In this document: positions 4,701 to 21,242 of the stretch, in pieces | How the letters are laid out: every line of letters begins with the position of its first letter | Numbering within the stretch: position 1 is the first letter of the stretch | Assembly: GCA_963662615.2 (NCBI GenBank) | Contig: CAXXSR010000001.1 | Span: 1,664,001 to 1,728,000 of the forward strand | Direction of reading: 5' to 3' | Length of the DNA stretch: 64,000 nucleotides | DNA from: Dehalococcoidia bacterium | GTDB taxonomy: Bacteria; Chloroflexota; Dehalococcoidia; Bin125 | Notes under the pieces: model-generated | What the model saw: the letters and a program-made list of their open reading frames with translations, nothing else | Told to the model about the DNA's origin: nothing | The model's database searches: none | Translations under genes and position numbers: made by a program

Positions 4701-5037
4701 GCCCCGCGCGGAGGAGCTGGCTGAGGTTGCGATCGACAGACTTCGTGAGCGAGGTGAGCGTGAGGAGCGCGACCTCCGCGGGATCCTCGAGCGTCACCGG
4801 AAGCGTGTAGCGGAGGAGCTGGAGAAGCAGGAGGATCAACCGCTTCAGCTTCGCCTCGGCTTTGGCGAGGAGGAGAGACGCCAGCGGGAAGCCGACGTGC
4901 GTTCCTGGCGCATTCGGTTGGAGCAGTTCGACCGTGACCTCGACGAGGAGCCGCAACGTGTCCGTGACTTCTACGAGGTCCGCGCCAGGCGGGTGGAGCC
5001 GATCGGGCTCGTCTATCTCTGGCCGGACACGAACTGA
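1726..5037 (+). CDS. drmD: DISARM SNF2-like helicase DrmD (start may be ATG 1732)
   Basis: SNF2 motifs ADDTGLGKT, DEAHH, SATPH and EQRNGRIDR; 1103 aa; first gene of a drmMI-A-B-C operon. Confidence 0.9.
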   Translation: MGMTTASRAQSLPTVAPDVGQLVHVRSRRWLVEEIVPPASPGDSCLVRLACADDDAQGQSLDVYWDYELDRRVLEEEGWQDLASQGFDDPRQFAAFLHTLQWNCVTATDPNIFQAPFRAGIKIDAYQMEPLRKALRLPRVNLFIADDTGLGKTIEAGLIARELLLRKKVKTIVVAAPASVIEQWKGEMEDRFGLVFEILDRAYLTKMRRERGFGVNPWRTHSRFLISHSLLIDPTYADPMREWLGPLLPGSLLILDEAHHAAPSSGGRYGIETKFTRAVRDLSGRFEHRLFLSATPHNGHSNSFSTLLELLDPYRFTRGVKVRGKRELDDVMVRRLKDDIRAIQGGFPVRVVQRVVIDGLPEDAPELVLSRLLDEYRTVREERHAAASRKAQASAGLLIVGLQQRLLSSTEAFARSLKVHRQTVKRHWEKESTTAVPESKTADEDARLFTMAPDVDDERGVWTDNQLDAEEDDQIESITSAAEAGTARDKAAVDLWNREQELLDEMEEVAEATRHLPEAKARRLIDWIRENMCPDLPPFGKSPTESRPAWNARRVLIFTENREGTKRYLRTILEQAIEGTDRADERIEVIDGLTSSTRRKEIQRRFNADPAKDPLRILLATDAAREGLNFQAHCADLFHFDLPWNPGRIEQRNGRIDRKLQRAPEVRCHYFALPQRVEDRVLRVLVRKTETIKKELGSLSKVIDDDIERQLRGGIRHRDVDRLARELEQADLDEERKRITNEELESARDRQEDLKQQIERCQTLLERSREWVGFAPEPFRDALSCSLKLIGAEPLTESRDDDGNLVWTFPPLDRRAETDASWAATLDTLRAPRKTNEKLAEWRREAPIRPIVFQDAGVLSDDTVHLHLEQRVAQRLLARFRSQGFIHHDLSRACLAQTADSVPRVILLGRLSLYGRNAERLHEEIVPLAARWVEPSRRQTPLRAYARAAETRTLDLLEASLDRGGSEPNETVRGKILASAARDVEELRPQLEPRAEELAEVAIDRLRERGEREERDLRGILERHRKRVAEELEKQEDQPLQLRLGFGEEERRQREADVRSWRIRLEQFDRDLDEEPQRVRDFYEVRARRVEPIGLVYLWPDTN

Positions 5038-8000: not shown

Positions 8001-8972
8001 AAACCTACGCGCTGGCCGGTCTCGGCAGGTTCTGAACTACTTGTGAATCCGCACAACAGAGAGGTTCTCCGCCCGTACCTCACGGGGGACGCCTTGAATT
8101 CCTTGCCGGATTCGATACCGTGCGAGATTGTCATCGATTTTGGGAATCGCGACGAGGAGGCCGCGAGGGAGTGGCCTGAGCTCATAGCGCTGGCAGAGGA
8201 GCGAGTAAAACCGGGCCGGGAGAAGTACAAAGGGGCGATGCGGGAGAAGTGGTGGCTCCACGCGCGCAGTAAAGCGAGTTTCTACACGAGCGTTCGCCCA
8301 CTTGAGCGCGTGATCGTCACTAGCCAAACAAGCCCTCGCTGGTCATTCACGCTAGTAGATTCAGCTTGGACCTATGACCAGACGGTTACGGTGATCTTGT
8401 CCGATTCACATGCCATGTTCGCCATCCTCAGCTCTCGATTGCACGAGGCCTGGGCTCGTTTCGTCGGGTCGTCGATGAAGGACGATCTTCGCTACACGCC
8501 GTCCGACTGTTTCGAGACCTTCCCCTTTCCCGAGGACTGGGAGACTCATGCGGCGCTGGAGGAGGTGGGCAAGGCCTACTACGCGTTCCGCGCGGATTCG
8601 ATGGTCAAAAACAACGAGGGCTTGACCAGGACATACAACCGCTTCCATCACCCAGACGAGCGCGACCCTGCCATCCAGGGATTGCGCGAGCTCCACGCGA
8701 CCATCGACCGTGTCATGCTCGACGCCTACGGCTGGAACGACATCCCAACCGATTGCGAGTTCCTCCTCGACTACGAGATCGACGAGGAGGAGTGGGGCCG
8801 CAAGAAGAAGCCTTACCGCTACCGCTGGCCCGATGACGTCCATGATGAAGTGCTGGCTCGGCTGCTTGAGCTAAACGCAGCTCGTGCGAAAGAGGAAGTG
8901 TGGGCCGGAGTCACGACCGAAAAGCCGAAGAGCCGCCGGAAGAAGGCCGCTAAGCAAAGGGAGCTCATCTAG
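5037..8972 (+). CDS. drmMI: DISARM N6-adenine DNA methyltransferase DrmMI (large, type IIG-like architecture)
   Basis: Motif I CDPAMGSGAF and motif IV GNPPF; C-terminal target-recognition region; start overlaps the drmD stop. Confidence 0.88.
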   Translation: MATLDPQIAAHLEWIGFVRPTGLVVSAPALVRAGAILDRNDAEGQRFLRENVEQREFDPAEGSTAWAPSFHAFASTVLGWNFSPTGYAGSEESPIPADLEVPLPDYGTTLRPDFVVRELDAAAGDVPWQLLVRVLEAGQDFDTTIRGDGNLEASAHGRMERLLRRTGVPAGLLFNGRALRLVSAPRGESSGWIDFCVDDMVQTAGRPICTALRLLLGQTRLLSLPRAQRLTALLEDSRKFQNEVSERLAEQVLHGLYDLLRGFQAAHDASGGELLREPLRENPDEVYRALLTVTLRLVFLLYAEERDMLPGDEAFQKYYSLAGLHARLREDAALFPDTMEQRYGAWPQLLVLFRMVFDGAESGEMRLPQRHGVLFDPDRFPFLEGRPAADSRQIDGRIEPPLVPDGTIYRVLENLLVLDGERISYRALDVEQIGSVYETMMGFRLEQATGRSVAIKASKRHGAPTTINLETLLAESPAAREKWVKDQADRALTDKVNKAVKDAVTLDDLHAALDSVVDRRATPDLIPVGAMALQPSEERRRSGSHYTPRTLTEPIIRTTLEPILKRLRGEEDRPPMPAQILELKVCDPAMGSGAFLVEACRHLGDALIEAWRFHDQLPSIPPDEDEVVLARRLIAQRCLYGVDKNPVAVDLAKMSLWLVTLARDHPLTFLDHALRHGDSLVGLSRKQIEAFHWDGDAPRFQAGLEIMQVREHVARVTNLRRRIREADESVQDWQLRDLWNEAQMELGNIRLFGDLVLAAFFEEEKPKERERKRNEYATSVLAGETEGNRERLDGWRDATLPLVPFHWEIEFPEVFERRAPGFDVFVGNPPFAGKNNLASANLAGYADWLRQSHEGSHGNADLVAHFFRRAFDLLREGGAFGLIATNTIGQGDTRSTGLRWICEHGGDLFAARKRLIWPGLAAVVVSVIHGTKGRFFEQRWLDDRPVEIITAFLADRGPHSDPSSLSANASLAFVGNYVLGDGFIFDDSKPTRWPVSAGSELLVNPHNREVLRPYLTGDALNSLPDSIPCEIVIDFGNRDEEAAREWPELIALAEERVKPGREKYKGAMREKWWLHARSKASFYTSVRPLERVIVTSQTSPRWSFTLVDSAWTYDQTVTVILSDSHAMFAILSSRLHEAWARFVGSSMKDDLRYTPSDCFETFPFPEDWETHAALEEVGKAYYAFRADSMVKNNEGLTRTYNRFHHPDERDPAIQGLRELHATIDRVMLDAYGWNDIPTDCEFLLDYEIDEEEWGRKKKPYRYRWPDDVHDEVLARLLELNAARAKEEVWAGVTTEKPKSRRKKAAKQRELI

Positions 8973-11900
8973 ATGGCCAAGACCGGAACGGACGACGCCC
9001 CCGCGACGACCTCCTTCGAAGTGCGAGCCAGCCTGGTCCAGGCGTTGCACCTTGACCTGGTTGGGCCGGGCTCGGATCACGAACTCGCTGAGGAGCGGCT
9101 ACCTGGTTGGGTGCGACCATCGAATTGGTATTTAACCGGTTTTCTGATCCCGTCGGGCACGCCACCTGAACAGGCCGCCGACACAGACGAGGGTGAAGAT
9201 CTGGACGAAACGCCGGAATCCGCCGGCCTCGCCGAAGAGAGCTCGGAGGACCGCAAGGCCGCCAAGCGAGGTTTCTTCCCGTCCTCCATGGGCTTGAGCT
9301 TCCTTGTGCCGGCCGGTGCGCAGACCCTTCAAGTCCTCGTGAGTTGGGGTGACTACACGGCGGAGGAAATCGAAGGCGAGGACCGGAAGTCGTCGTCCGT
9401 CTGGCAGCGGCACCCGCGGGAGCAGACGGTTGATGCCTCCCTTGGCGCTGGCGGGGGAGCGCCATGGGTCGTCCCCCTGCCAGACTCTGGCGGTCTCGAG
9501 CTAAACATCGTCGAGCGGGCGGTGTCGGTCGTGGACCTCGAGGGGCAGATCCCTGCGGGTACTCGGTCCATCTCCCTCTTCCTCGTGAACCACCGACCGC
9601 CGCTCGAGGCCAGGCTCGACGAGGCCTTCGTCTTCCAGCCGCAGCTCGACGTGCGGTGCGAGGTTCCCTTCGTGCCCCGGCCTGACCTTCGCGGCGCCTC
9701 CCCCGAGGATTGGGACGAGCAAGTGGCTGACCTGCACTACGCAGATGTGCCGGCATACGCCACAGGCCACAGTGTTTCGGCGGAGTGGGAAACGGCGGAC
9801 GGCGCGTGCCGCCTCCTGCGCACCGCCTGGATCCCCAGCGCCGAAGTCGAGAAGACCAGCACTGTCGAGCTTCCCGGCGTCGAACTGTCAATGAACGTCC
9901 TCGGAGTCTTGGAGGGTGGCCCTGCCGTTGAAAAGGCCTTGGCCCCATTGGTCGAACGCTACCGGACCTGGATCGAGGAACGGCGAGACGAGACCGCACA
10001 ACTCGCCGGGACCCGCCGTGACACGGCTGATCAGCTTCTCAGCTCCGCTTCATTCGCGGCCGACCGCATTGAGCGTGGGATCGCCGTCCTTGCCGAGGAC
10101 CCCGACGTCCTCGACGCGTTTCGGGTCGCGAACCGGGCCGTGGCCCGCGCCCTGCAGAAGCGCCTCGACGTCGAATCGCCGCAGTGGCGAGCCTTCCAAC
10201 TCGCTTTCGTCCTGCTCAACCTGCCCGGCATGGCCGACCCAAGCGACCCCAATCGCGACACAGTAGACCTGCTCTTCTTCCCGACCGGCGGGGGCAAGAC
10301 GGAGGCGTACTTTGGGCTCGCCGCCTTCGCGATGGTGCTGCGGCGGCTGCGTCATCGGGGGTCTCCCGCGGGCGTTGGGGTCAGCGTCATCATGCGCTAC
10401 ACCCTCCGGCTCCTCACACTGGACCAACTCAGCCGCGCGGCCGGACTCGTCTGTGCTTTGGAACTGGAGCGCGACCAGGATCCCATCTCTTACGGCGAGT
10501 GGCCCTTCGAGATCGGATTGTGGGTGGGTAAGGCTGCGACGCCAAACGTGCTTGGCCACAAAGGCGACGGACGGTCAGACTCCGCGCGCAGCAAGGTGCG
10601 CCAGTTCAAGAGCGATCCACGCAACAGGCCTTCACCAATCCCGCTCGAAAACTGCCCCTGGTGCGGGGAGTCTTTCAAGCCCGAGTCGTTTGAGCTTCGG
10701 CCAGACGACGACCGACCCCGTGAGCTACGGATCGTCTGCATGAACTTCGAGTGTGACTTCACCCGGGATCGCGCGCTGCCGATCGTGGCCGTCGACGAGC
10801 CCATCTATCGACGCTTGCCTGCCTTCCTGATCGCGACCGTCGACAAGTTCGCCTCGCTGCCTTGGGTTGGGCAGGCCGGCGCGCTCCTTGGCGGCGCGGA
10901 TCATCACGATTCAACGGGGTTCTATGGCGCCGCGGACCCGGGCAGCGGTACCCGCCTCGACACGCCCCTCCCCCCGCCCGACCTCATCATCCAGGATGAA
11001 CTCCACCTGATTTCTGGCCCGCTCGGCACCATGGCGGGGTTGTACGAGACGGCCATCGAGGCCCTCTGCGTGCGCCAGCTCGAGGGGCGCGCCGTCCGGC
11101 CCAAGATTGTCGCCTCGACCGCGACGGTGCGCCGTGCCCCCGATCAAATCCAGGCACTCTTCGGGCGGGCGTCCACCCAAGTCTTCCCACCTCCCGGGCC
11201 GGGACGCCGGCACTCGTTTTTTGCCAAGACGCTCTCGCCGACGGAGGTCCCTGCCAGGCTGTATCTCGGAGTTGCTGCGCAGGGTCGTAACCCAAAGGAG
11301 GTCCTCCGGAAGACGTGGCTCGCGCTGATGGGTGCCGCGCAGCGGGCCTACCGCGACGCGGGCGGCCACCAGAATGAAGCAAATCCTGCCGACCCCTATA
11401 TGACGGTCCTGGGGTACTTCAACAGCCTGCGCGAGTTGGGCGGCTGCCGCCGCATCCTCGAGGAGCAGGTCCAGAACACGATCAAGGCATACGGCGGCCG
11501 CAAGCGGGTCGGCGAGGATCGCGGGCTCTTCCGTGACCGGAAGACCTTCTCTGAGGTGGTCGAACTGACCTCCCGCGTCCCGACCAACAAGGTGGCGGAG
11601 GCGCGGCGCCGCTTGGAGGCCCGCTTCCACGAGAAGCAGCGTGTGGACTGTGCGATCGCGACGAACATGATCTCGGTCGGGCTTGATATTCAGCGGCTGG
11701 GACTGATGGTGGTGCAGGGCCAGCCCAAGACCACGTCCGAGTACATTCAGGCGACGAGTCGCGTGGGCCGAGACGAGGAGCGCCCTGGGCTCGTCGTCAC
11801 GCTGCTCAACATTCACAAGCCGCGGGATCGATCCCACTACGAGCGCTTCCGCCACTACCACGAGACCTTTTACCGCTCGGTCGAGGTGAGCAGCGTCACA

Positions 11901-12371
11901 CCGTTCTCTGCCCGCGCACTGGATCGCGGCTTCGCTGGTGCATGCGTTGCACTGGCGCGGTACGCCGAGCCGGCGCTGGCACCGCCGCGCGGTGCCGAGC
12001 AGATCGCGGCGGTCCGAGTTTCCCTAGAGATGCAGCTCCTCGACGCATTCCTTGAGCGGGTCCGGCAGCAGCCGATCGAGGACGCAGACGAGCTGGAGGA
12101 ACGCTTACGCAGTGTGCGAAACCGGACCGTGGATCTGCTCGACTCCTGGCGGGCGGTCTTCGACGAGTACCTCGCTGACGGAGTGGCGCTGCAGTACCAG
12201 AAGTACGAGCTGGACGGTCCTCGGCCACTCCTGCGCGACATCCTCGACCGAGATTTCGAGTCGGAACACCACCGAAAATTCCGTGCTAACCGGTCGCTTC
12301 GCGACGTGGAGCCGGAGGTCAACTTGTTTCTCCATGACCTCAACGGCAGGCAGGTGGACGCCGGGCCATGA
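8973..12371 (+). CDS. drmA: DISARM SF2 helicase DrmA
   Basis: PTGGGKTEAY, IQDELH, ASTAT and QATSRVGR motifs plus a CPWC zinc motif; immediately upstream of a DUF1998 gene. Confidence 0.92.
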   Translation: MAKTGTDDAPATTSFEVRASLVQALHLDLVGPGSDHELAEERLPGWVRPSNWYLTGFLIPSGTPPEQAADTDEGEDLDETPESAGLAEESSEDRKAAKRGFFPSSMGLSFLVPAGAQTLQVLVSWGDYTAEEIEGEDRKSSSVWQRHPREQTVDASLGAGGGAPWVVPLPDSGGLELNIVERAVSVVDLEGQIPAGTRSISLFLVNHRPPLEARLDEAFVFQPQLDVRCEVPFVPRPDLRGASPEDWDEQVADLHYADVPAYATGHSVSAEWETADGACRLLRTAWIPSAEVEKTSTVELPGVELSMNVLGVLEGGPAVEKALAPLVERYRTWIEERRDETAQLAGTRRDTADQLLSSASFAADRIERGIAVLAEDPDVLDAFRVANRAVARALQKRLDVESPQWRAFQLAFVLLNLPGMADPSDPNRDTVDLLFFPTGGGKTEAYFGLAAFAMVLRRLRHRGSPAGVGVSVIMRYTLRLLTLDQLSRAAGLVCALELERDQDPISYGEWPFEIGLWVGKAATPNVLGHKGDGRSDSARSKVRQFKSDPRNRPSPIPLENCPWCGESFKPESFELRPDDDRPRELRIVCMNFECDFTRDRALPIVAVDEPIYRRLPAFLIATVDKFASLPWVGQAGALLGGADHHDSTGFYGAADPGSGTRLDTPLPPPDLIIQDELHLISGPLGTMAGLYETAIEALCVRQLEGRAVRPKIVASTATVRRAPDQIQALFGRASTQVFPPPGPGRRHSFFAKTLSPTEVPARLYLGVAAQGRNPKEVLRKTWLALMGAAQRAYRDAGGHQNEANPADPYMTVLGYFNSLRELGGCRRILEEQVQNTIKAYGGRKRVGEDRGLFRDRKTFSEVVELTSRVPTNKVAEARRRLEARFHEKQRVDCAIATNMISVGLDIQRLGLMVVQGQPKTTSEYIQATSRVGRDEERPGLVVTLLNIHKPRDRSHYERFRHYHETFYRSVEVSSVTPFSARALDRGFAGACVALARYAEPALAPPRGAEQIAAVRVSLEMQLLDAFLERVRQQPIEDADELEERLRSVRNRTVDLLDSWRAVFDEYLADGVALQYQKYELDGPRPLLRDILDRDFESEHHRKFRANRSLRDVEPEVNLFLHDLNGRQVDAGP

Positions 12372-14161
12372 GCAAGCGCGCACACGGCCAGATTCGACGG
12401 AGCCAAGTCATCACCACGTGGGGCCCCGGTGCGCTCCTGGATCTCCCCCGCCACTCGGCGATCGTCGGGGGCTTGGACACCTGGCCCCGAATCAACGACC
12501 TCGAGGAGATCGTGGAGCCATTCCTGTCGCGAAAACTTCAAGAGATGACGGGCGTTGCTGCCCCGCGCTTATACGCTCCACCGGCGGACTCGAACGACCC
12601 CCGGGAGCCGAAGCAGGGCATCACGGTCTACCGCTTTCCGGAGTGGTTCATCGTCCAAGAGGCCGCGGGCGAAGACGGACGCCAGCGCTCCCGACGCCTC
12701 GTGTCCCGGCGCGCCCTCGATGAGCGGGGAAAGTTCGACGGGCACCTGGTCGTCGCGACCCGGTTCGTGCGGGGGTGCCCGCGAGGACACGTGGACGATC
12801 TCGATTGGCCTACGTTCGTCCATGGCCCCGGGGACGGCTGTCATCGCCAGCTCTGGCTGGACGAGCGGGGGACCAGCGGAGACCTGGGCGAGAACGTCGT
12901 GCGCTGTGAATGCAAACGGACGCGCGGGATGCACGAAGCGATGCTTCTCGAGGACAATCCGCTGGGTACGTGTCGCGGCACGCGCCCCTGGCTCGGACTG
13001 CATTCCAAGGAGGACTGTACGCTGCCCAGCCGCCTTCTCACCCGGACAGCCGCCAACGCCTACTTCCCGCAAGTGGTCAGTGTGCTCTCGCTCCCAGACC
13101 AGGGATCGGCCGTCCAGGGGGTAGTGCGAGCACTCTGGGACGATCTGCAGATCGTAGACACCGTCGACCAGCTCGCGTTTCTCAAGAAAAAGCCTCAAAT
13201 CGCAGATCTGCTCTCGCCGTTCAGCAACGACGAGGTCTTCGAGGCGATCGGCGTGGTCAAAGGTGGGCACGACGACGAGCGACCCGTTAAACACGTGGAG
13301 ATCGAAGCGATACTCGCCGCTCCCGAGGGCTTCGGGGACGACGTCCCGGTCGACCCGAACTTCCATGCACGGCGCCTGCCAGACGCAGCCTGGCGCCAGT
13401 TCTCTCGGAGCGACGGAATCGAGAGCGTCACCCAGCTCCATCGATTGCGAGAGGTCCTCGCCCTCAGCGGCTTCACCCGGTTCGAGGCGGAAGTACCCGA
13501 CATTCACGGCGAGTACGACAGCGATGTGCAGCGTGCGGAGCTTGCCCTGGAGCCCCAGTGGTTCCCCGCCGTCGAGAATCGCGGCGAGGGACTCTTCGTC
13601 CAGCTTCGTGCCACGGCCCTGCAGAGCTGGCTTGAGCAGCCGGGTGTCCAGGACCGACTCGATCACCTCACGACCGGCCATGACAGATGGATCAAGGACC
13701 GCAAGAGTAAGAGACAGTTCCCCGGCGGGCCGTACATTCTCCTGCACACGCTGTCGCATCTTCTGATGGAGTCGCTCTCGATGCGCTGCGGCTATCCAGC
13801 GAGCTCGATCCGCGAGCGGATCTATGCGGATGCAGCGGGGCAACGCTTCGGCGTCTTGCTCTACACGGGTAGCCCAGACGCAGAAGGCACACTCGGAGGG
13901 CTCGTCCAAGAAGCGCGTCATTTTGAGGCCCATCTTGCCTACGCGCTGCGGATGGGGGCGCTGTGCTCCAACGATCCGATTTGCGCAGAACACGCCCCTG
14001 GAGAAAGTTTGGAAGAACGCTGGCTCCACGGTGCCGCCTGCCACGGCTGTGCGCTGGTCGCGGAGACGTCATGCGAGATGCGCAACGACCATCTCGATCG
14101 CGCACTCCTCGTCCCCGTCCTGGGAGTCTCGGATGCGGCGTTCTTCGAGACCGTGGAATGA
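12368..14161 (+). CDS. drmB: DISARM DUF1998 protein DrmB
   Basis: N-terminal IRRSQVITTWGPG; LLHTLSHLLM; C-terminal CSNDPIC...ACHGC...ETSCE cysteine cluster; ATGA overlap with drmA. Confidence 0.92.
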   Translation: MSKRAHGQIRRSQVITTWGPGALLDLPRHSAIVGGLDTWPRINDLEEIVEPFLSRKLQEMTGVAAPRLYAPPADSNDPREPKQGITVYRFPEWFIVQEAAGEDGRQRSRRLVSRRALDERGKFDGHLVVATRFVRGCPRGHVDDLDWPTFVHGPGDGCHRQLWLDERGTSGDLGENVVRCECKRTRGMHEAMLLEDNPLGTCRGTRPWLGLHSKEDCTLPSRLLTRTAANAYFPQVVSVLSLPDQGSAVQGVVRALWDDLQIVDTVDQLAFLKKKPQIADLLSPFSNDEVFEAIGVVKGGHDDERPVKHVEIEAILAAPEGFGDDVPVDPNFHARRLPDAAWRQFSRSDGIESVTQLHRLREVLALSGFTRFEAEVPDIHGEYDSDVQRAELALEPQWFPAVENRGEGLFVQLRATALQSWLEQPGVQDRLDHLTTGHDRWIKDRKSKRQFPGGPYILLHTLSHLLMESLSMRCGYPASSIRERIYADAAGQRFGVLLYTGSPDAEGTLGGLVQEARHFEAHLAYALRMGALCSNDPICAEHAPGESLEERWLHGAACHGCALVAETSCEMRNDHLDRALLVPVLGVSDAAFFETVE

Positions 14162-14940
14162 CCGCGGCCCTCTTCGGTCTCCCGGCGCATCGGCGGAGGC
14201 GGCTTGTGGAAGCCCTTCAGTCGGGTCAGCTCTCTACGCCTTATTCCCCCACTTCGCTGCGATCAGTCCTCGGGCTGCGCGAGGGGGGCGAGGCCGTGCT
14301 CGATGCCCTGGGGGAGTTGGAAGGGATGAGCATCACTGGACGGGCCGCGGCGGCCTGGATTCGCGCCGTTGATGAGGCAGTCGATCGGCTGCCGCGGCCG
14401 GATCTCGTCTGGTCAGGCCCGGAGGTACTCGGGCTGCACGCCCGCGACACGCGGCGCGTGTACGAGGAGCTTCTGGGTGCGGCGGAGGACTCGATCTGGG
14501 CGTGCAGTTACGCCTACTTCGATGGTCGGCGCGCCTTCGAGGCGCTGGCGCGCCGGATGGACGAGAAGCCCGAGTTACGTGTGACGCTACTGCTCAACAT
14601 TCAGCGCCGACGCGGGGACACGACGACGGCGGAGCAGCTGGTGCGGAAATTCGCGGATCGCTTCTGGGGCACGGATTGGCCCGGCTCGTCCCGGCCGAGG
14701 GTCTTCTACGACCCGCGCTCGCTTGAGCCCGATGGTCCCGCTGGGGTCTTGCACGCGAAGGCCGTGGTAGCGGACGACAGGGCGGTCTTCGTGACATCCG
14801 CCAACCTCACCGAAGCGGCGCTCGACAGAAACATTGAGATCGGTCTGCTGGTTCGCGATCCGGCGATCGCCGCTACCGTCTCGACGCACTTCCGCACACT
14901 GGTCGAACAACGCTTGCTGCTCCAGTTGCCTGGGGACTAA
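14158..14940 (+). CDS. drmC: DISARM phospholipase D-family nuclease DrmC
   Basis: Single HKD motif LHAKAVVAD followed by TSANLT and NIEIG; ATG at 14158 overlaps the drmB stop (ATGA). Confidence 0.9.
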   Translation: MTAALFGLPAHRRRRLVEALQSGQLSTPYSPTSLRSVLGLREGGEAVLDALGELEGMSITGRAAAAWIRAVDEAVDRLPRPDLVWSGPEVLGLHARDTRRVYEELLGAAEDSIWACSYAYFDGRRAFEALARRMDEKPELRVTLLLNIQRRRGDTTTAEQLVRKFADRFWGTDWPGSSRPRVFYDPRSLEPDGPAGVLHAKAVVADDRAVFVTSANLTEAALDRNIEIGLLVRDPAIAATVSTHFRTLVEQRLLLQLPGD

Positions 14941-15011
14941 GACCAGTCGTCTGGGAGCGCTCCTCTAGCGGCCCGGAGTTCAACGACGCGCTCGGCCACG
15001 CCTCGTCGATG

Positions 15012-15962
15012 TGACCTGCCCCCCCAGAACCGGTCCAGATCCTGTGCGAGGATTCGGGCCGGTGCGAAGGGAGTCGGCATGGCACGCAAGCGGTACGCGG
15101 CCGAGGAGATCATCAGCAAACTGCGGGAGGCGGAGGTGGTGCTCGCGCAGGGGGAATCGGTCGCGCCGGTCGCGCGCCGCCTCGGCGTGGCCGAGCCAAC
15201 GTATTACCGCTGGCGGCGGGAGTACGGGGGGCTGCGGGTCGACCAGGCCAAGCGGCTGAAAGAACTGGAGCGCGAGAACAGTCGGCTGAAGCGGTTGGTG
15301 GCCGATCAGGCGCTGGACAACGCGATGTTGCGGGGCGTCGCAGCGGGAACCTGCTGAGCCCGGCCAAGCGGCGCCGGGCGACATCCTCCCGCACGGACCC
15401 GTACGCGGTGTCGGAGCGGCGGGCCTGCCGGGTCACCGGCCAGGCGCGGGCACCGCAGCGCTACGTGCCCCGGCCGTCCCCGGATGAGCCGGCGCTGATC
15501 GCGCGCATCGTCGCGCTGGCCACCCGCTTCGGCCGCTACGGCTCCCGCCGCATCACGGCCCGGCTGCGCCAGGCGGGCTGGCGGGTGAACCCCAAGCGGG
15601 TCGAGCGGCTCTGGCGTCAGGAAGGCTTGCGGGTCCCCGGGAAGCACCCCAAACGGGGCCGCCTCTGGCTCGCGGCCGGCTCGCTGGTGCGGCGGCGGGC
15701 CGAGCGGCCGAACCACGTCTGGTCCTACGACTTCGTCTTCGACCGCACCGCCGCTGGGCGCCCGGTGCGGATCCTCGCCATCGTGGATGAGTACACCCGC
15801 GAGTGCCTGCGTCTCGACGTCGCCCGCCGACTGCGCAGCGACGACGTCCTGGCGCGGTTGGCCCAGCTGTTCGTCGAGCGCGGGCCGCCGACGTTTCTGC
15901 GGTCCGACAACGGCCCGGAGTTCACCGCCACCGCGGTGCGGGACTGGCTGCACCGGGTCGGG
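15012..15962 (+). mobile_element. Truncated IS3-family (IS407-like) insertion sequence
   Basis: Left end TGACCTGCCCCC at 15012, then orfA and overlapping orfB. orfB similarity stops after SDNGPEFTATAVRDWLHRVG, so the third DDE residue and right IR are missing. Confidence 0.85.
15079..15357 (+). CDS. IS3-family transposase OrfA (HTH)
   Basis: MARKRYAAEEIISKLREAE...TYYRWRREYGG...KRLKELERENSRLKRLVADQALDN is typical of IS3 OrfA. Confidence 0.9.
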   Translation: MARKRYAAEEIISKLREAEVVLAQGESVAPVARRLGVAEPTYYRWRREYGGLRVDQAKRLKELERENSRLKRLVADQALDNAMLRGVAAGTC

Positions 15963-17255
15963 CTCCCGCCCGAGACTGGCGCGCAGTCGCGCCGGAGGCG
16001 GGAACGGACTAAGGGAAGATCGGCACTCCACGACCCTATACCAGATGGGAAGATCGGCACTCAGCTTGAGCTTTCTCTGGATGGGTTGGACGTGTCGCCG
16101 GTCTCGAAGGAGAAGCGCAAGCGCGCGGCTAAGAGACCAGCCCGACACGACGAGCTGTTCGATCTCTACCAGCGTCGGATCGCCGGCCGCGTCGCACCCG
16201 CGACAGTGACGAAGTACGCCTGGACGCTCGAACAGTGTCTTCGTCTGGCCGAGGAGCGAACCTCCCGGCCGGTGAGCATAGCGATGCTGTTGACTGACGG
16301 AACGGCGCTGGGATACGTCTGTTCCACGACTCGACGCCCTGGTGGCGGACTCCCCATCTCGGCATGGACCGCCGCGCATAGAAGGACGGTCTTGCGGTCC
16401 GTGGCCGGGACTCTCGCACCGGAACTCAGGTCTTTGGGCCTGAACGACGCGATCCAACACGTCGATCTCGCGATCCGGCGAGTGGCCGAGAGGGTGGGCG
16501 GTGGATCTCGCTTGCCGGTCGGAACGACGCGGAACAGAGGCCGGCCCGTGCCGTCGACGGCGGAAGTGAGCTCGCTACTGAACGTCGTAGGAAGCGACGA
16601 AGGCTGGGCTGGTCAGCGAAATGCGCTGTTCTACGGAATCCTCGCCGCGACGGGCACGCGCGTCGGCGCACTTCTTGTACTGGATGGCCAAGACTTGTGT
16701 CTGACTCCGGACGGTGCCGTCCGGCTTTCTCTCCACGACAAAGCCTCCGGTGGGCGGTTCGAGCTGGAACTTCCGGATCGCTTCCACGCACCGCTAGATG
16801 CCTACTTCGAGGCTACCAATCTGTCGCTCACCGGTCTGGGAAAAGGGCGAGTCGGGTTCGGGAGATTAGGCCCTGTTTGGCGCGGTCCAACGGGCGATCG
16901 ATGGCCAGCCGCCCAGATGCGCCGCCGCTTGCGAGCGGCCTGCCGCACGGCTGGGATAGAGGACTACACGCCGCATTCGTTCAGAGCCTACTTCGCCACG
17001 CAAGCGACCAACGTCGCGTCGCGCCGAGTCGCGGCCCTTGCCGGAGGCTGGCGGGGGACCGAGCGAATGGATGACCACTACGTCGGAGTCAAGCGCGATT
17101 CCATCGAGCGGAAGCTCGCCCAGATCGGCGTATCCGACAGAAGCCAACGCGGCTCCCGTCGTCGCCCGGCGGTTGAACAGCCTCATATGTCGCCCGCCGC
17201 AACTACACCGACGGCGGGTGCAGATCTCATTGCGAAGATCCGGTCGCGCCAATGA
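15408..17255 (+). CDS. In-frame fusion: truncated IS3 OrfB (to ~15962) plus a tyrosine recombinase (~15963-17255) with a complete catalytic set
   Basis: N-terminal part has WSYDFV and RSDNG (two DDE aspartates). C-terminal part has TGTR (R), HDK (K), PHSFR (HxxR), GGW (H/W) and DDHY (Y). Confidence 0.8.
   Translation: MSERRACRVTGQARAPQRYVPRPSPDEPALIARIVALATRFGRYGSRRITARLRQAGWRVNPKRVERLWRQEGLRVPGKHPKRGRLWLAAGSLVRRRAERPNHVWSYDFVFDRTAAGRPVRILAIVDEYTRECLRLDVARRLRSDDVLARLAQLFVERGPPTFLRSDNGPEFTATAVRDWLHRVGLPPETGAQSRRRRERTKGRSALHDPIPDGKIGTQLELSLDGLDVSPVSKEKRKRAAKRPARHDELFDLYQRRIAGRVAPATVTKYAWTLEQCLRLAEERTSRPVSIAMLLTDGTALGYVCSTTRRPGGGLPISAWTAAHRRTVLRSVAGTLAPELRSLGLNDAIQHVDLAIRRVAERVGGGSRLPVGTTRNRGRPVPSTAEVSSLLNVVGSDEGWAGQRNALFYGILAATGTRVGALLVLDGQDLCLTPDGAVRLSLHDKASGGRFELELPDRFHAPLDAYFEATNLSLTGLGKGRVGFGRLGPVWRGPTGDRWPAAQMRRRLRAACRTAGIEDYTPHSFRAYFATQATNVASRRVAALAGGWRGTERMDDHYVGVKRDSIERKLAQIGVSDRSQRGSRRRPAVEQPHMSPAATTPTAGADLIAKIRSRQ
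16013..16062. repeat. Perfect 16-bp direct repeat GGGAAGATCGGCACTC, two copies, 34-bp period
   Basis: Copies at 16013-16028 and 16047-16062. Confidence 0.9.
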
Positions 17256-18277
17256 CAGCGCTCCAACCCGATCTGTTGAAGTCCAAGCGTGCGTCGCTCG
17301 ACGAAGACTCCGAACGGTTGCTGACGACCTACACGCAGGCACGGCTCGACGAGGGAGCAGCCGCATCGACCGTGTCGTCTGAGCGCTCCCAGCTCAGGAG
17401 CCTGCTACGGGACTCGATCGAATCCGGCAAGGCCAGGACCCTCGCTGAGCTGGTGATGGACCCGTCGAGCGCCGCATCCGCGCTGACCTGCCCCACAGGT
17501 TCACCGGGCAGGGCGTCGATGCAGACGAGACTTCGCGCCTTCCAGCGGCTCTCGGGGCTCGGAGTTTCCGACGCGGAACGCAGGGCACGCCTCGAAGTCT
17601 TGGATGGGTCCCTCCCTTCCCGGCGCAGCCGAGGGTGGCACGACGCCGGTATCGCCGTCGCTGGACTACGGGGAACAGGACGGTGTAGAACTTCGACGAT
17701 CGATCCATCAGCGCTGGAGGCGATCGTTCTCGGGAGCGGTGTCCGAGCGAACGACGATTCCGCCCTTCTGGGCGCGCTCTGCTTCAGCGGCCTGCGCGTC
17801 GCGGAGGTTCGCATGCTGCGCTGGGGAGATCTGATCTGGAACGGCGCGGCAGAATCCTGGGAAGCTTCGGTCCAGCGTACCGGGAGACGTGGCCTGCGGT
17901 TTCTCATCGTTGGACCCGGTGCCCAAACCATGACGAATTGGAGACTTGAATCGCGCGCCGACGACGACCAAGCTGTCTTCGGCGCGCGGGACTCCGGGAA
18001 ACCCCTATCGGCGCGTGGCTTCCGACGGCGCGTGGACTTCGCTCTAACTCAGGCTGGGCATCCCTCGACCCGGCATTCCCAGATTCAGTCGGCGTTCGCG
18101 GGCTGGCTCTCCGCGTCCGGCTTCACGGACCACGAGATCAAAGTGGTGATGGGGCGCCGGGAGGTCAGATCGGTTGACCGGCTCCTGTTCGCTCACCGGG
18201 CGTTGGCGGCGCAGCGGCAGCTTGCCGAGCAAATGGAGGGTGCGCCCCTTGGCTCGGGCTCGATCGGGAGCCATTGA
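17252..18277 (+). CDS. Tyrosine-recombinase-fold protein, catalytically degenerate
   Basis: Box I FSGLRVAEVRMLRWGD is kept, but the HxxR position reads SQIQ, LGH reads MGR and the Tyr position reads VDRL. ATGA overlap with the upstream recombinase. Confidence 0.75.
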   Translation: MTALQPDLLKSKRASLDEDSERLLTTYTQARLDEGAAASTVSSERSQLRSLLRDSIESGKARTLAELVMDPSSAASALTCPTGSPGRASMQTRLRAFQRLSGLGVSDAERRARLEVLDGSLPSRRSRGWHDAGIAVAGLRGTGRCRTSTIDPSALEAIVLGSGVRANDDSALLGALCFSGLRVAEVRMLRWGDLIWNGAAESWEASVQRTGRRGLRFLIVGPGAQTMTNWRLESRADDDQAVFGARDSGKPLSARGFRRRVDFALTQAGHPSTRHSQIQSAFAGWLSASGFTDHEIKVVMGRREVRSVDRLLFAHRALAAQRQLAEQMEGAPLGSGSIGSH

Positions 18278-18291
18278 AGTGCTCTGGGTAC

Positions 18292-18320
18292 TTGAGGCTA
18301 GAGATAAAGACGGTGATAAT
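18292..18320 (+). promoter_or_regulatory. Candidate sigma70 promoter for the small-ORF/serine-recombinase pair
   Basis: TTGAGG-17 bp-GATAAT followed by a purine-rich RBS (GAGGAAGGGG) before ATG 18342. Confidence 0.35.
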
Positions 18321-18341
18321 AATGAGGAAGGGGGTGCTGCG

Positions 18342-18578
18342 ATGGATGTGACGCTCAATGGGAAGCGCTACTCGATGACGAAAGCGGATGTGGAGCGGGT
18401 CGTCGACGAGGCTCCGGACTCGCCGCGACGATACGTCGTGAAAGTCAAACGAAAGCGCTACCCGATCAAACAGGCCGCAAGTGCGGGCCTCGGTGTGCCG
18501 CCCGTCGCGTTCACTTCCCAGCAGGCGTACCAATGGCTCTCGCGACTCGACTTCGACGTGATCGATCTGAAGGGCTGA
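18342..18578 (+). CDS. Small basic protein, SCO5918-like; possible DNA-binding protein or recombination directionality factor
   Basis: 78 aa, MDVTLNGKRYSMTK...RYPIKQA...FTSQQAYQWLSRLDF; good RBS; 5 bp upstream of the serine recombinase. Family assigned from remembered motifs only. Confidence 0.6.
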   Translation: MDVTLNGKRYSMTKADVERVVDEAPDSPRRYVVKVKRKRYPIKQAASAGLGVPPVAFTSQQAYQWLSRLDFDVIDLKG

Positions 18579-18583
18579 CGACC

Positions 18584-20137
18584 ATGCGAGCACTCGTCTA
18601 CTGCCGCGTGTCGACCGATGCCCAAGAGCGAGATGGCACTTCCCTCGATACTCAGGAGCGGGCGGCCGTCAAGGTTGCGCGCGAGTCCGGCTATTCGGTG
18701 ACCGAAACGGTCCGCGACACCGCGAGCGGATTCACGCTCGAACGGCCGGGAATCGAACACGTCCGGCGTCTGCTCAGGGCCGGCGCCGTCGACATCGTGC
18801 TGGCCTACGCCGTCGACCGATTGTCCCGCAACCAGAACCACATCGGTGTCCTCTTCGACGAGGTCGCTCAAGCTGGGGCTCAACTGGAGTTCGTGACGGA
18901 GGACTTCGAGGACACGGCGATCGGCCGCTTCATCTTGGCGGCGCGCGCGTTCACGGCGGAGGTCGAGCGCGAGAAGATCGCCGAGAGAACGATGCGCGGC
19001 AAGGCGGAGCGCGCGCGGCGAGGGAAGCTCCCTCAGGGTACGGGCAAGGGGATGTACGGATACGCGTACGACCCGGATACCGGAACTCGACAGATTGTCG
19101 AGGCGCAAGCAGCGGTCGTTCGACGGATCTTCGAGGCGTTCGTCGCGGGTCGAGCGTGCAACGGGATCTCGAACGATCTGAACGGCGACGGTGTTCCTGC
19201 GTTCAGCGGCGGGCGCTGGTACGCGCTGACGATCCGTCGACTGCTCAAGAATGAAGCGTTCGCGGGACGAACGATCTACCGGCGGACCCGCGCAGATCGG
19301 GTGCGGGATGTGGCGCGCGGTCGCTGGACGCGGCGCATCGTGGAGCGGGACCAGTCAGAGTGGATTGAGGTCGCGGGAGCGACGCCGGTGATCATCGACC
19401 GAGGCCTGTTCGACGCGGCACAGAAGATTCTCGACGATCCATCTCGCCGCCCACAGACGGCTCCGTCAGACGTGTACCTGCTCCGGGGCCGGATCTCTTG
19501 CCGGGAGTGCGGTGCGAAGATGGTCGGCCATGCTTCGAATCGAGGGCGCTATCGCTACTACCGCTGCCCGAACGGCTCAAGCGGTCCGGGAGAGACATCG
19601 TGCTGCTCAAGGTACATCCGCATCGAGCGCCTTGAGGGCGCGGTGAAGACGGCCTTGACCGATCTGCTTGCTTCACCGGACCGGCTTCTTGGTGAGGCGA
19701 AGCGTCTCGCCAGACGTCAGCCGCAAGACGAGGACCTTGAGAAAGTGTTCCAAGCCTTAGGCGAGGTGGAGTCCGCTCAGGGAAGACTGGTCCGACTGTA
19801 TACGACCGAGGCGCTTCCCGAGCACCTGCTGCGCGAAGAATCTCGGGTCCTGTCTGAGCGGCGTGAGGTGCTGGAGAACACGCGCCGAGAGCTGCAAGCT
19901 CAAACGGTGCCCACGCCCCGCGACTTCTCGCGGATCGCAGGCGACGTACCAGCGGCACTCTCGGCCATCCGCAGTTGGGTTAAGGACGCGAGCGGGGACG
20001 ACTTCGATCTCATGCTGCGGGCTGTCGATGCACAGGTCAGAGCCTCACACGAAGGGGTCGAGATCGCGGGCGCCGTGCCGATCTTCCCAGATGGGGATCA
20101 GGCGGATTTCGCTACCATTGAACAAACATCGGCATGA
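18584..20137 (+). CDS. Large serine recombinase (integrase)
   Basis: MRALVYCRVSTDAQ (catalytic Ser), DRLSR, recombinase domain, zinc ribbon CRECG...YYRC, coiled coil. Confidence 0.93.
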   Translation: MRALVYCRVSTDAQERDGTSLDTQERAAVKVARESGYSVTETVRDTASGFTLERPGIEHVRRLLRAGAVDIVLAYAVDRLSRNQNHIGVLFDEVAQAGAQLEFVTEDFEDTAIGRFILAARAFTAEVEREKIAERTMRGKAERARRGKLPQGTGKGMYGYAYDPDTGTRQIVEAQAAVVRRIFEAFVAGRACNGISNDLNGDGVPAFSGGRWYALTIRRLLKNEAFAGRTIYRRTRADRVRDVARGRWTRRIVERDQSEWIEVAGATPVIIDRGLFDAAQKILDDPSRRPQTAPSDVYLLRGRISCRECGAKMVGHASNRGRYRYYRCPNGSSGPGETSCCSRYIRIERLEGAVKTALTDLLASPDRLLGEAKRLARRQPQDEDLEKVFQALGEVESAQGRLVRLYTTEALPEHLLREESRVLSERREVLENTRRELQAQTVPTPRDFSRIAGDVPAALSAIRSWVKDASGDDFDLMLRAVDAQVRASHEGVEIAGAVPIFPDGDQADFATIEQTSA

Positions 20138-21242
20138 TGACGTGGATGTAGTTGTCACGGCCAAGAGGCCGGAAGACGCCCGGGTTGGACGGACCGGTTG
20201 ACTCCAGGGCGATCTGACCGCCTCCCAGCACTTGCAGCACGTCCTGAAGATAGCGGCTATTGAAGGCGACCTTGGCTTCCTCGCCTTCGACCGTCGCGTC
20301 CATCTCCCCTTGATGATCGCCCTGCTCTTCCGCGCGGGCCGAGATGGCGATCTTCCCCGGCTGCGTGTTGGCCGGCACGATCACCAGCCGCACGATGCCG
20401 CTGCCGTCCCGCGCGAAGACCGCCGCCGTGCGGACTTCGCGGAGGAATTCGGCCGTGTCAACCGTGGCGCGGGTTTGATAATCGGCGGGGATGAGCTGGT
20501 TGAAACTGGGGAACGTTCCCTGGATCAGCTGCGCCGTCAGTTCGAGATCAGTGAGCCGGAACAGGACCTGGCTGCGGGCGCCGTTCACGTGCAACTCTAC
20601 GGGCTCTTCTTGTTCAGCCAGGAGCCGGCTCAGCTCTTGCAACGCCCGCGCGGGCACGATGATCTCAATGGAAGCCTCCGGCGCCTCCGCGATGTCCAAG
20701 TGATAGACAGCGAGCCGGAAGCCGTCAGCGGCCGCGAGCGTGAGCCGCTCCTCATCAATGCGGAGATGAACGCCGGTCAGCACCGGCCGGCTGTCGTCCG
20801 TGGCGGCGGCGAAGACGACGTGCTCGATCGCTTCGCGGAGGGCATCAGGCTCGAGACGGATCGTGTCGCCTTCGGTGATGGTGGGGATGGGCGGAAAGTC
20901 GTCCGCGTCCATCCCGCTGATCGTCGCCTCGTTGCGCGCGCAGACGATCTGGGCCTGGCGCGAACGCGGGGCCACCGTCACGGTGATGTCCGCGGGAGGC
21001 AGCGAGGCGACGAATTCCGTCAGCAGCCGCGCCGGGATCGTGATCGCGCCCTCTTCTTCGACGGTTGCCGTCACCCAACCCGTGATGGCGATCTCCAGAT
21101 TCGTGGCCGCGAGCTTGAGGCGATCCCCTTCCGTGGCCAGGTAGATATGCGAGGTCTGGGGGAGGGTGCTGCGCGCCGCCACTGCCCGGCCGACTGTGGC
21201 GAGCCCGCGCTGCAAGACCTCTTGCCGCGTAGCGAGCTTCAC
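20112..21242 (-). CDS. dnaN: DNA polymerase III beta sliding clamp
   Basis: ATNLEI, DDSRPVLTGV, AADGFRLA and C-terminal VIMPMFVQW; 376 aa. Confidence 0.97.
   Translation of the reverse strand: MKLATRQEVLQRGLATVGRAVAARSTLPQTSHIYLATEGDRLKLAATNLEIAITGWVTATVEEEGAITIPARLLTEFVASLPPADITVTVAPRSRQAQIVCARNEATISGMDADDFPPIPTITEGDTIRLEPDALREAIEHVVFAAATDDSRPVLTGVHLRIDEERLTLAAADGFRLAVYHLDIAEAPEASIEIIVPARALQELSRLLAEQEEPVELHVNGARSQVLFRLTDLELTAQLIQGTFPSFNQLIPADYQTRATVDTAEFLREVRTAAVFARDGSGIVRLVIVPANTQPGKIAISARAEEQGDHQGEMDATVEGEEAKVAFNSRYLQDVLQVLGGGQIALESTGPSNPGVFRPLGRDNYIHVIMPMFVQW

Follow-up and report, generated by a model that had tools for sequence, protein, structure and literature searches.

We describe here a 64,000-nt stretch of a Dehalococcoidia genome (the window; G000:C1:1664001-1728000, the source genome G000 being a 2.66-Mb, two-contig assembly), in which four plus-strand genes run up to dnaN. 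These genes encode a tyrosine recombinase (YR1, 16008-17255), a second protein of the tyrosine-recombinase fold (YR2, 17252-18277), a 78-aa protein (18342-18578) and a large serine recombinase of 517 aa (LSR, 18584-20137). The dnaN gene (beta clamp; 20112-21242, minus strand; three DNA_pol3_beta domains in Pfam) is convergent with the LSR gene, and the two open reading frames (ORFs) overlap by 26 nt; we regard dnaN as the target neighbor and not as a part of the element. By sequence comparison, exactly these four genes appear to make up a discrete element of ~4.1 kb (~16007-20097, ~4.09 kb), which would begin or end, depending on the direction of reading, ~17 bp past the dnaN stop codon. Tentatively, and with slightly less than even confidence, we interpret it as a small, cargo-free integrative element of Chloroflexota with two recombination systems, the LSR and a YR1/YR2 module.

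The family was followed through 20 loci: the window, nine contigs from a one-genome-per-species set, one metagenome locus and nine loci from whole-genome searches. YR1 retains the box I Arg, the hairpin Lys, HxxR, the Trp and the Tyr and is, by its residues, a catalytically complete tyrosine recombinase; the same set was found in all 14 unbroken copies from 17 loci. Its PF00589 score (26.4 bits) lies below the gathering cut-off of 27.1, and a YR1 family profile built from 19 sequences matched XerD in the PDB at 8.6e-07. The YR1 dN/dS ratio (nonsynonymous to synonymous substitution rates) ranged from 0.20 to 0.40 in pairs that were neither saturated nor near-identical, and was 0.57 for the 98%-identical pair L053/L058. 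YR1 is coupled to YR2 by an ATGA overlap (17252-17255), and both proteins have a Gly/Arg-rich linker, as a sequence-only reading of this DNA had pointed out together with the full catalytic set of the first protein. The NCBIfam models for XerC (20.7 and 19.7 bits, cut-off 335) and XerD (16.5, cut-off 329.6) were not reached, and on sequence YR1 and YR2 make up a separate, distant subfamily. No YR1 relatives were found in viral contigs, and a metagenome scan for the family returned one locus only. A 492-aa database protein, P0021, has the N-terminal part of an LSR (Resolvase domain) fused to the C-terminal two-thirds of a YR1 homologue, which may be a rearrangement product or an assembly artefact.

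YR2 is a two-domain protein of the same fold that lacks the nucleophile Tyr, Arg II and the H/W residue (PF00589 score of 25.0 bits, gathering cut-off 27.1). In the window, the box I Arg is kept, with Q at Arg II, R for H/W and L for Tyr. We extracted YR2 frames at 17 loci, 16 of which can be read at the Tyr column since the L012 frame breaks before it; the nucleophile was absent from all 16 (Leu in 15, Thr in L059), and the H/W residue was also replaced. The same pattern was seen in ten database sequences (the query and nine homologues), save P0010, which diverges in this region. The earlier statement that YR2 keeps only the box I Arg thus holds for the window but not for the family, in which this Arg is lost at 9 of the 17 loci. 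Its companion expectation, that the loss of catalytic residues is conserved and not simple decay, agrees with the absent Tyr and with the YR2 dN/dS ratios of 0.24 (window/L012), 0.25 (L052/L053) and 0.19 (L054/L059), which stay at or below 0.41 in more distant pairs; the L053/L058 pair, 98% identical and with very few changes, gave 0.63. The loss is family-wide and ancient, and YR2 is, judged by these ratios and alignments, a maintained non-catalytic protein.

The YR1 and YR2 families aligned to each other over 274 columns (hhalign probability 94.6%, E 6.9e-08), in the manner of paralogues. An AlphaFold2 model of YR2 from 18 sequences had a mean predicted local distance difference test score (pLDDT) of 82.6, with disorder only at the termini and in the linker (residues 133-147). 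Its top PDB matches in Foldseek were XerA, XerH and Cre (probability 1.00, E ~5e-06), at TM-scores of only 0.36-0.43, the two domains being differently placed; the integrase-fold proteins SroF, YopR and MrpR (PDB 8a0a, 8bj6, 9rgl) followed at ranks 48-50 with E-values of 0.011-0.064. When the YR1-YR2 complex was predicted, the pair scored 0.37 and the best control 0.00, with at least 75% contact agreement between runs and a partner pLDDT of at least 79. Of 80 solved complexes, 58 reached the mark used, as did 2 of 110 mismatched pairs; among those that reached it, only 7 of the solved complexes but both mismatched pairs scored 0.60 or lower. Since solved recombinase dimers exist, this pass may reflect likeness only. 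The heterodimer modeling proposed by the sequence-only reading therefore separates the pair from its control and gives weak support to a YR1-YR2 heteromer.

The 78-aa protein belongs to an unnamed, widespread family that has no Pfam entry. A search of 1.84 billion representatives returned 137 relatives at E<=1e-3, most of them aligned over residues 1-77, and the ORF is therefore a real, complete gene. A palindrome inside it, CGACGA/TACGTCG (18426-18438; the slash marks the homology limit), is the right limit of homology to the pair-only copy of L012, and two truncated database forms, P0032 and P0113, stop matching the protein at about residues 25-32. A 2.4-kb circle in which the small ORF would contribute its first 30 codons, fused in frame to YR1, was also considered and rejected, because the frames mismatch and the 78-aa protein is a complete family member. 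A small ORF between YR2 and LSR is usual, being present in the window and in eight other LSR-linked loci, and its family varies: RHH-like in L052 and L054 (weak hits), HTH_17/excisionase-like in L016 (1.2e-13), L021, L014 and L020, and Cys-rich in L056 and L057.

The LSR has the three domains of a large serine recombinase, Resolvase, Recombinase and Zn_ribbon_recom (Pfam E-values of 1.5e-30, 1.9e-21 and 5.5e-13). The 78-aa ORF and the intact serine recombinase named in the sequence-only reading were both borne out. Comparison with homologues places its start at the ATG at 18584 and not at 18533. The final ~14 codons (from ~20095/20098) fall in sequence alignable to host DNA and run antisense to the dnaN 3' end. 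The best NCBIfam matches of the LSR, XisF and CcrA/B/C, have the same three-domain architecture and an integrase gene at the element end beside the attachment site; the scores were far under the cut-offs (109.8 against 375, and 99.7 against 900).

The left boundary of the element at 16007 emerges directly from the alignments. Homology to L012 (73% identity) spans 16007-18431 only, and homology to L013 (99.9% over 821 bp, in another assembly and another context) runs from 16007 up to an insertion sequence (IS) in L013; the left flanks of the three copies are unrelated, so that three different contexts have a common start at 16007. At the left junction (16006-16012, plus strand), a common core GGA/GA is followed by a conserved terminus, (G)ACTAAG, and ACTAAG recurs at this position in L054, L056 and L057, whose flanks are again unrelated and whose YR1 is ~39-40% identical to that of the window. 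Public sequencing data from three runs of two studies show contig breaks at 16007 and 16827, consistent with the presence of several contexts in the population. Position 15963, which had been given as the start, is instead a break point: the IS3-family orfB to its left is broken at 15962, and intact genomic copies extend ~330 bp further. The broken orfB and YR1 share one frame, forming a 615-codon ORF. Insertion of the element into an IS3 copy was rejected, because the missing IS3 3' part does not adjoin the element; the IS3 3' parts in the genome adjoin 5' parts, except for one 81%-identical piece at C1:898056-898264. The 43 bp between the IS break and the element (15963-16005) are homologous neither to IS3 nor to the YR family, and we propose that they may be a remnant of the original dnaN-downstream DNA (the B arm of attL). 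They end in GGCGGGAAC, a weak match (local score of 16) to ..GGGCGAAC before GGATCAG in G404, a family member without an element there.

The right end probably lies at ~20094-20097, ~17 bp past the dnaN stop. Here the core GGA (20095-20097), common to both junctions, is separated from the dnaN stop codon by 14 host-like bp (20095-20111 in total), and the alignment of 20095-20135 to the G404 DNA downstream of dnaN begins at the very first base; this alignment is modest, with 17 bases outside dnaN. The conserved dnaN 3' end is seen across the compared loci, and in four measured loci ACTAAG lies 4104, 3927, 4026 and 3376 nt from the dnaN stop. The left terminus of the G347 copy is 4 nt away from the end of a cupin gene, beyond which come genes for a Rieske oxygenase and an alcohol dehydrogenase; since these are host metabolic genes, that copy is also cargo-free. 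G019, of the same genus as G332, G296 and G368, has an unoccupied dnaN site, and the left flank of the G247 copy was found in none of 40 relatives searched for an unoccupied site. The number of ACT/GAC triplets before AAG varies among left junctions (CGACT-AAG, CGACTACT-AAG and CGACTACTACT-AAG in L058, L053 and L052), and GAC occurs once at window 16007 and twice in L012 (L012 10000), which would fit staggered crossovers or slippage at the junction. A mosaic patch is also present: window 18120-18431, from the YR2 3' end through the spacer to codon 30 of the small gene, is ~96% identical to L012 over ~315 bp, the rest of the pair being ~70% identical; the patch ends at the palindrome, and the database homologues P0005-P0007 carry the same identical YR2 C-terminus.

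Both ends carry copies of a 14-mer, GGGAAGATCGGCAC. Site A (16013-16026, plus strand) has related sites at the same position in L012, L054, L056 and L057. Site B (16041-16060, plus strand) contains a second direct copy, at 16047, 34 bp downstream of A, and site C (20075-20094, minus strand) contains an exact inverted copy at 20075-20088. Extended to 20 nt, sites B and C are inverted repeats of each other, complementary at 18 of 20 positions (90%). The 14-mer occurs exactly only at 16013, 16047 and, inverted, 20075 in the 2.66-Mb genome; with up to two mismatches, the window holds six matches where 0.96 would be expected, a count not attained in any of 100 shuffles. ACTAAG and the two direct sites 34 bp apart are kept in five loci (YR1 ~39-71% identical to that of the window), and since sites A and B fall in different YR1 reading frames, this conservation acts at the DNA level.

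The junctions also bear on how YR1 is started. In its integrated form, YR1 has no start codon of its own, the first internal starts being TTG at 16086 and GTG at 16092, and the integrated copies of the window, L012, L013 and L057 all lack a family-type start before the conserved T-K-x-R-S N-terminus. Database homologues P0016, P0019, P0020 and P0024 begin with M-[QR]-T-[TP]-K just before the start of homology, and in P0014 the Met of this type is internal. An ATG is present at the right end of the element (20091-20093), inside the LSR 3' end and within the extension of site C. Joining 20097 to 16009 via GGA puts this ATG in the YR1 frame (ATG-GGG-ACT-AAG; M-G-T-K-G-R-S..), as checked by hand, and the same joining puts the TAA of ACTAAG in the LSR frame as a stop. 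L054 shows ATG ATG ACT ACT at its right end and ACT ACT AAG at its left end, with ACTACT in common.

The arrangement recurs. A strong YR2 match was found in 7 of 401 genomes of the class, G000 included, which has three copies. YR1 is directly followed by YR2 in 17 of the 20 loci; the exceptions are L013 (an IS inside YR1), L018 (a contig end) and L060 (a YR2 remnant beside an ABC permease). An LSR follows YR2 in 11 of 17 informative loci (the window, L052, L054, L056, L057, L059, L060, L016, L021, L014 and L020; broken in L057 and L020) and is absent from the other six (L012, L017, L019, L053, L055 and L058). The complete order YR1-YR2-small ORF-LSR, convergent on dnaN, was found in five genomes of four families (G000, G247, G332, G296 and G347), in all of which the LSR ORF enters the antisense of the last dnaN codons, and the order pair-small ORF-LSR is kept from Dehalococcoidia to Thermomicrobiales/Chloroflexia loci. 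LSR-linked loci are 25-62% (LSR) and 33-43% (YR) identical to the window. The synteny across Chloroflexota that the sequence-only reading had asked about therefore exists. G000 itself carries a second YR1-YR2-RHH-like-LSR copy ~36 kb away in the opposite orientation (L052, copy B; G000:C1:1642039-1646168, minus strand), with identities to the window of 39%, 36% and 48%.

The pair and the LSR have separate histories. Copy C of G000 (L053; C1:~893686-896257; 7687-10257) and the copy of G220, from another family (L058; 8224-10791), share a pair-only unit of 2573 bp that is 98% identical, with unrelated flanks. Such identity across families indicates recent horizontal movement of the pair alone, and from these alignments the YR pair can evidently travel as a unit of 2.4-2.6 kb. 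The dependence of the pair on the LSR implied by the sequence-only reading is not supported, given this discrete 2.57-kb unit and the six loci without an LSR. The copy in L012 stops halfway through the palindrome in the small gene, and the L053/L058 unit ends at a near-identical motif. To the left of L012, a GpA-type terminase gene is cut at residue 232 and its remainder is missing, showing that rearrangement accompanies pair copies. Conversely, G368, which belongs to the same genus as G332 and G296, has next to dnaN, without a YR pair, an LSR with 36% identity to that of the window; the genes upstream of this LSR encode a primase, a protein with a weak TraG-D_C hit and a Replic_Relax protein. 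The two parts have also been shuffled, as the LSRs of L056 and L059 are 89% identical with YRs at 46-49%, and the YRs of L054 and L059 are 73-77% identical with LSRs at 49%. Because of the G368 LSR and this shuffling, it is most likely the LSR that sets the dnaN target, in agreement with the earlier assignment of integration to the serine enzyme. The crossover identity in the window is 2-3 nt, and such short identity suits a serine integrase.

Considering the anatomy and the comparisons together, we propose that the LSR inserts the element a short way (~17 bases in this copy) downstream of the dnaN stop, with little crossover identity needed (GA/GGA), probably aided by the small upstream protein as a directionality factor or regulator. 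YR1 would be the sole catalytic subunit, and YR2, a diverged paralogue, would be its non-catalytic DNA-binding or architectural partner, like GinC or Tfp of the elements discussed below. The crossover site would lie at the very 5' end of YR1, and integration would part YR1 from the ATG at the other element end; the joined ends would read ..CCCAGATGGGGACTAAGGG.., restoring the ATG to YR1 and a TAA stop to the LSR. With the start codon separated by integration, YR1 and YR2 are proposed to be made properly only from the excised circle or by read-through from flanking DNA, and when made from the circle they would carry out the next step, which may be re-insertion elsewhere, resolution or nicking. 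We infer the circular form, the assignment of each enzyme to its site and the heteromer. In its strictest version, the element would be an excision-gated serine/tyrosine hybrid, in which integration at dnaN cuts YR1 from its start codon and only the circle makes the YR1/YR2 heteromer for the next step; we consider this version possible but rather doubtful. If it were true, the heteromer might next transpose the 2.4-kb sub-unit to new sites or make a nick for transfer or replication, and the element would represent a new class of minimal, cargo-free, two-stage mobile elements.

Several observations weigh against this proposal. The best-guess junction of L056 restores no start codon, and the L052/L053/L058 subfamily has an internal ATG of its own; restoration of the ATG is therefore not universal. 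Only the window has an inverted 14-mer where the LSR gene ends; no counterpart at up to two mismatches was found in L054, L056 and L057. Likewise, no inverted copy of the locus's own site A was found at the LSR end of L054, L056, L057, L052, L016 or L021, and we took a single inverted match with one mismatch at the LSR end of L059 as chance. No canonical tyrosine-recombinase core site, with inverted arms around a 6-8-bp spacer, was identified, and the resemblance of the left flank to host DNA is weak. The LSR C-terminus of L052 enters a 24-nt stretch resembling the dnaN 3' end, which there has the orientation of the LSR, the reverse of what is seen in the window, which may reflect an old inversion, and the ends of the pair-only units differ between subfamilies. 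Tn554, GInts and SEs all have two active tyrosine recombinases, and the module here has one. In addition, no circular junction or empty site was found in public data (Logan, short contigs only): six runs contain 65-70% of the sampled words, as short contigs; the joints listed for them have sides of 20-35 letters, except for one local 95-bp skip with a side of 78, and none of those listed joins the element end to end.

These points leave room for other explanations. An integrase with a small factor and one nicking enzyme is the minimal layout of a mobilisable element, and the LSR and small protein could integrate and excise such an element, with YR1/YR2 acting on the excised circle at sites A, B and C as a nickase (a relaxase or a rolling-circle initiator), among the roles that the sequence-only reading had put forward. 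The single catalytic Tyr subunit, the three 14-mer copies near the joined ends, which could be an origin, the DUF3854 protein just upstream of the L017 pair and the primase, TraG-D_C-like (weak hit) and Replic_Relax genes that occupy the slot of the YR pair in G368 all fit this idea. YR1, however, keeps the full catalytic set of a recombinase, neither protein is related by sequence to the named relaxase families in Pfam, NCBIfam and PADLOC, and sharp-ended pair-only units at 98% identity in unrelated contexts indicate that the pair suffices for insertion without an LSR in cis, or is moved in trans; we therefore judge the nickase unlikely. The same units raise the prospect of two separate selfish elements without cooperation, in which YR1-YR2 would be an autonomous small transposon that lands repeatedly upstream of LSRs or shares an end site. 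The six informative loci with a pair and no LSR, the disagreement between pair and LSR phylogenies (L054, L056, L059), nucleotide homology between L056 and L059 that begins just past the LSR start codon, and the ends of L012 and L053/L058 at the palindrome and its near-identical motif would all be expected in that case. Nevertheless, the order pair-small ORF-LSR persists from Dehalococcoidia to Thermomicrobiales/Chloroflexia, composite and pair-only forms (window, L012 and L013) have a common left terminus, and the start codon of the window pair lies inside the LSR 3' end; we judge two separate, non-cooperating elements distinctly unlikely.

YR2 might otherwise be a DNA-binding regulator, an integrase-fold repressor like MrpR, YopR and SroF of SPbeta-type phages, and YR1 a resolvase of circle multimers. 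The repeated 14-mers overlap the YR1 5' end in an operator-like position, and two reports on SPbeta-type phages describe integrase-fold repressors (PMC10516654, 10.1101/2025.11.27.690993), which the YR2 model does match, though only at ranks 48-50. Its best structural matches are true recombinases (E ~5e-06), and YR2 is always coupled or adjacent to an active paralogue, as is typical of a heteromeric enzyme, so that we find the regulator improbable. That the start-less, IS-fused YR1 and the dead YR2 are functionless relics is very improbable. Their fusion and missing ATG, and the broken state of several relatives (YR2 frameshift in L012; YR1 in L019 and L059; LSR in L057 and L020; the remnant in L060), would suit decay, but all four ORFs are open, the dN/dS of both YR genes is well under 1, the catalytic-residue loss is family-wide and ancient, and an 821-bp copy in another assembly and context is 99.9% identical. 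We therefore return to the cargo-free integrative element with two recombination systems as our preferred, if tentative, reading.

Tn554 is a small site-specific transposon with tyrosine recombinases and a small integration-affecting protein, asymmetric ends and a short core; unlike here, both recombinases are catalytically complete, and there is neither a dead partner nor a serine recombinase. SSV-type archaeal integrases have the attachment site in the recombinase gene, so that the gene is split by integration; at the dnaN locus, in contrast, only the start codon and one or two codons would be separated, and the split YR1 may not be the integrating enzyme. TcpM, MpsA and MobK are tyrosine-recombinase-like relaxases, each a single catalytic Tyr enzyme that stands beside an integrase on a small integrative or mobilisable element; going by these descriptions, they are set apart by the complete recombinase set of YR1 and by the insertion of pair-only units at new places. 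RIT elements have three consecutive tyrosine recombinases, and here two are followed by the 78-aa protein and a serine recombinase; XerC/XerD are two active paralogues, and YR2 is inactive by its residues. SPbeta-type phages integrate via a large serine recombinase. MrpR, YopR and SroF of these phages use a non-catalytic tyrosine-recombinase fold for DNA binding, as YR2 may do, but are single regulators unpaired with an active paralogue, and the likeness of YR2 to them (E 0.011-0.064) is weaker than that to the recombinases (~5e-06).

The closest layouts, which place a dead recombinase-fold subunit together with a small protein in a 5'-end operon of the element, are those of GInts and SEs, passages of whose reports both name Tn554 (tnpA, tnpB, tnpC) as an older relative (PMC5385486, PMC10214605). 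As described in parts of the GInt report (Bardaji et al. 2017, PMC5385486), ginABCD form a 5'-end operon of tyrosine-recombinase-fold genes and a small protein, flanked by short imperfect repeats; outside transcription can enter, circular intermediates are formed, all four gin mutants lost recombination, and GinC is essential although it lacks the catalytic residues. GInts differ, according to the same parts, in having two active recombinases besides GinC, where the window has one active and one dead protein, in lacking a serine recombinase, in carrying cargo after ginD and in belonging to Proteobacteria, not Chloroflexota. In SEs (intA-tfp-intB-srap), parts of the report (PMC10214605) describe a Tfp without the RHRY motif in a coupled left-end operon, a small fourth protein and inverted terminal motifs; all four genes were called essential, although no tfp knockout could be obtained. 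SEs differ by two active recombinases, a Tfp of more than 550 aa, the lack of a serine recombinase and a copy-out, strand-biased mechanism, and were found only in Gammaproteobacteria by their authors' searches, as far as these parts of the report go (PMC10214605). With YR1 alone complete, the window lacks the second active tyrosine recombinase that Tn554, GInts and SEs have in common. None of the window proteins received a GinA-D, IntA/Tfp/IntB/Srap or TnpA-C name in Pfam or NCBIfam, and the likeness is one of described layout.

The one full-text literature search made for a prior description returned a single paper, which does not mention dnaN, and no report of dnaN as a serine-recombinase target; judged from that search and from the absence of family names in Pfam, NCBIfam and PADLOC, the four-gene combination appears not to have been described previously. 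The locus adds a Chloroflexota lineage to the few elements that keep a dead tyrosine-recombinase-fold subunit beside an active one (GInts and SEs) and is the first case found in which such a pair is linked with a large serine recombinase, here in a four-gene element. One active and one dead subunit make a stripped set-up in which the role of the dead subunit would be easier to study. The comparisons also point to the dnaN 3' flank as a serine-integrase target in Dehalococcoidia-type genomes, and raise the testable idea that the start codon of a recombinase is supplied only by joining the element ends. Compact site-specific systems of this kind are, moreover, raw material for genome-engineering tools.

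To the left of the element lies an IS3-family remnant, with orfA at 15079-15357 (Pfam) followed by the truncated orfB (15408-15962, plus strand; rve 4e-18, HTH_21 4.3e-14), which is outside the element and fused in frame to YR1. Directly left of this remnant is a complete class 1 DISARM set (DrmD, DrmMI, DrmA, DrmB and DrmC; 1726-14940, plus strand; PADLOC E 0 to 3e-79). The sequence-only reading had taken defence genes as cargo of the element; the DISARM operon, however, stands beyond the broken IS and the 43-bp stretch of unplaced origin, outside the 16007 end, and a larger element with DISARM cargo was rejected on the left-boundary data. IS3-family copies are numerous in G000 (17 matches), and several YR-pair loci have them inside or close by, such as the copy within YR1 of L013 and that directly after YR2 in L055; they were noted at window 15000-15962 and at L002-L008, L013, L052, L055 and L058.

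On the other side of the element, a class III aminotransferase gene is on the minus strand along with dnaN. Upstream of dnaN, synteny is kept across relatives of the same family (L062-L066), and the downstream DNA is different in every genome examined; this difference suggests that the dnaN-downstream region is a general integration hot spot. A 95-bp stretch 1.4 kb before the window (L011; G000:C1:1662491-1662585) is 88% identical to the LSR 3' part (window 19876-19970) and may be a remnant of an earlier element at this hot spot. In L017, an 893-aa DUF3854 protein (2438-5119) is encoded between dnaN and the pair, with all of these genes on one strand, and three tandem 21-bp repeats (5555-5615) lie ~140-185 nt upstream of YR1.

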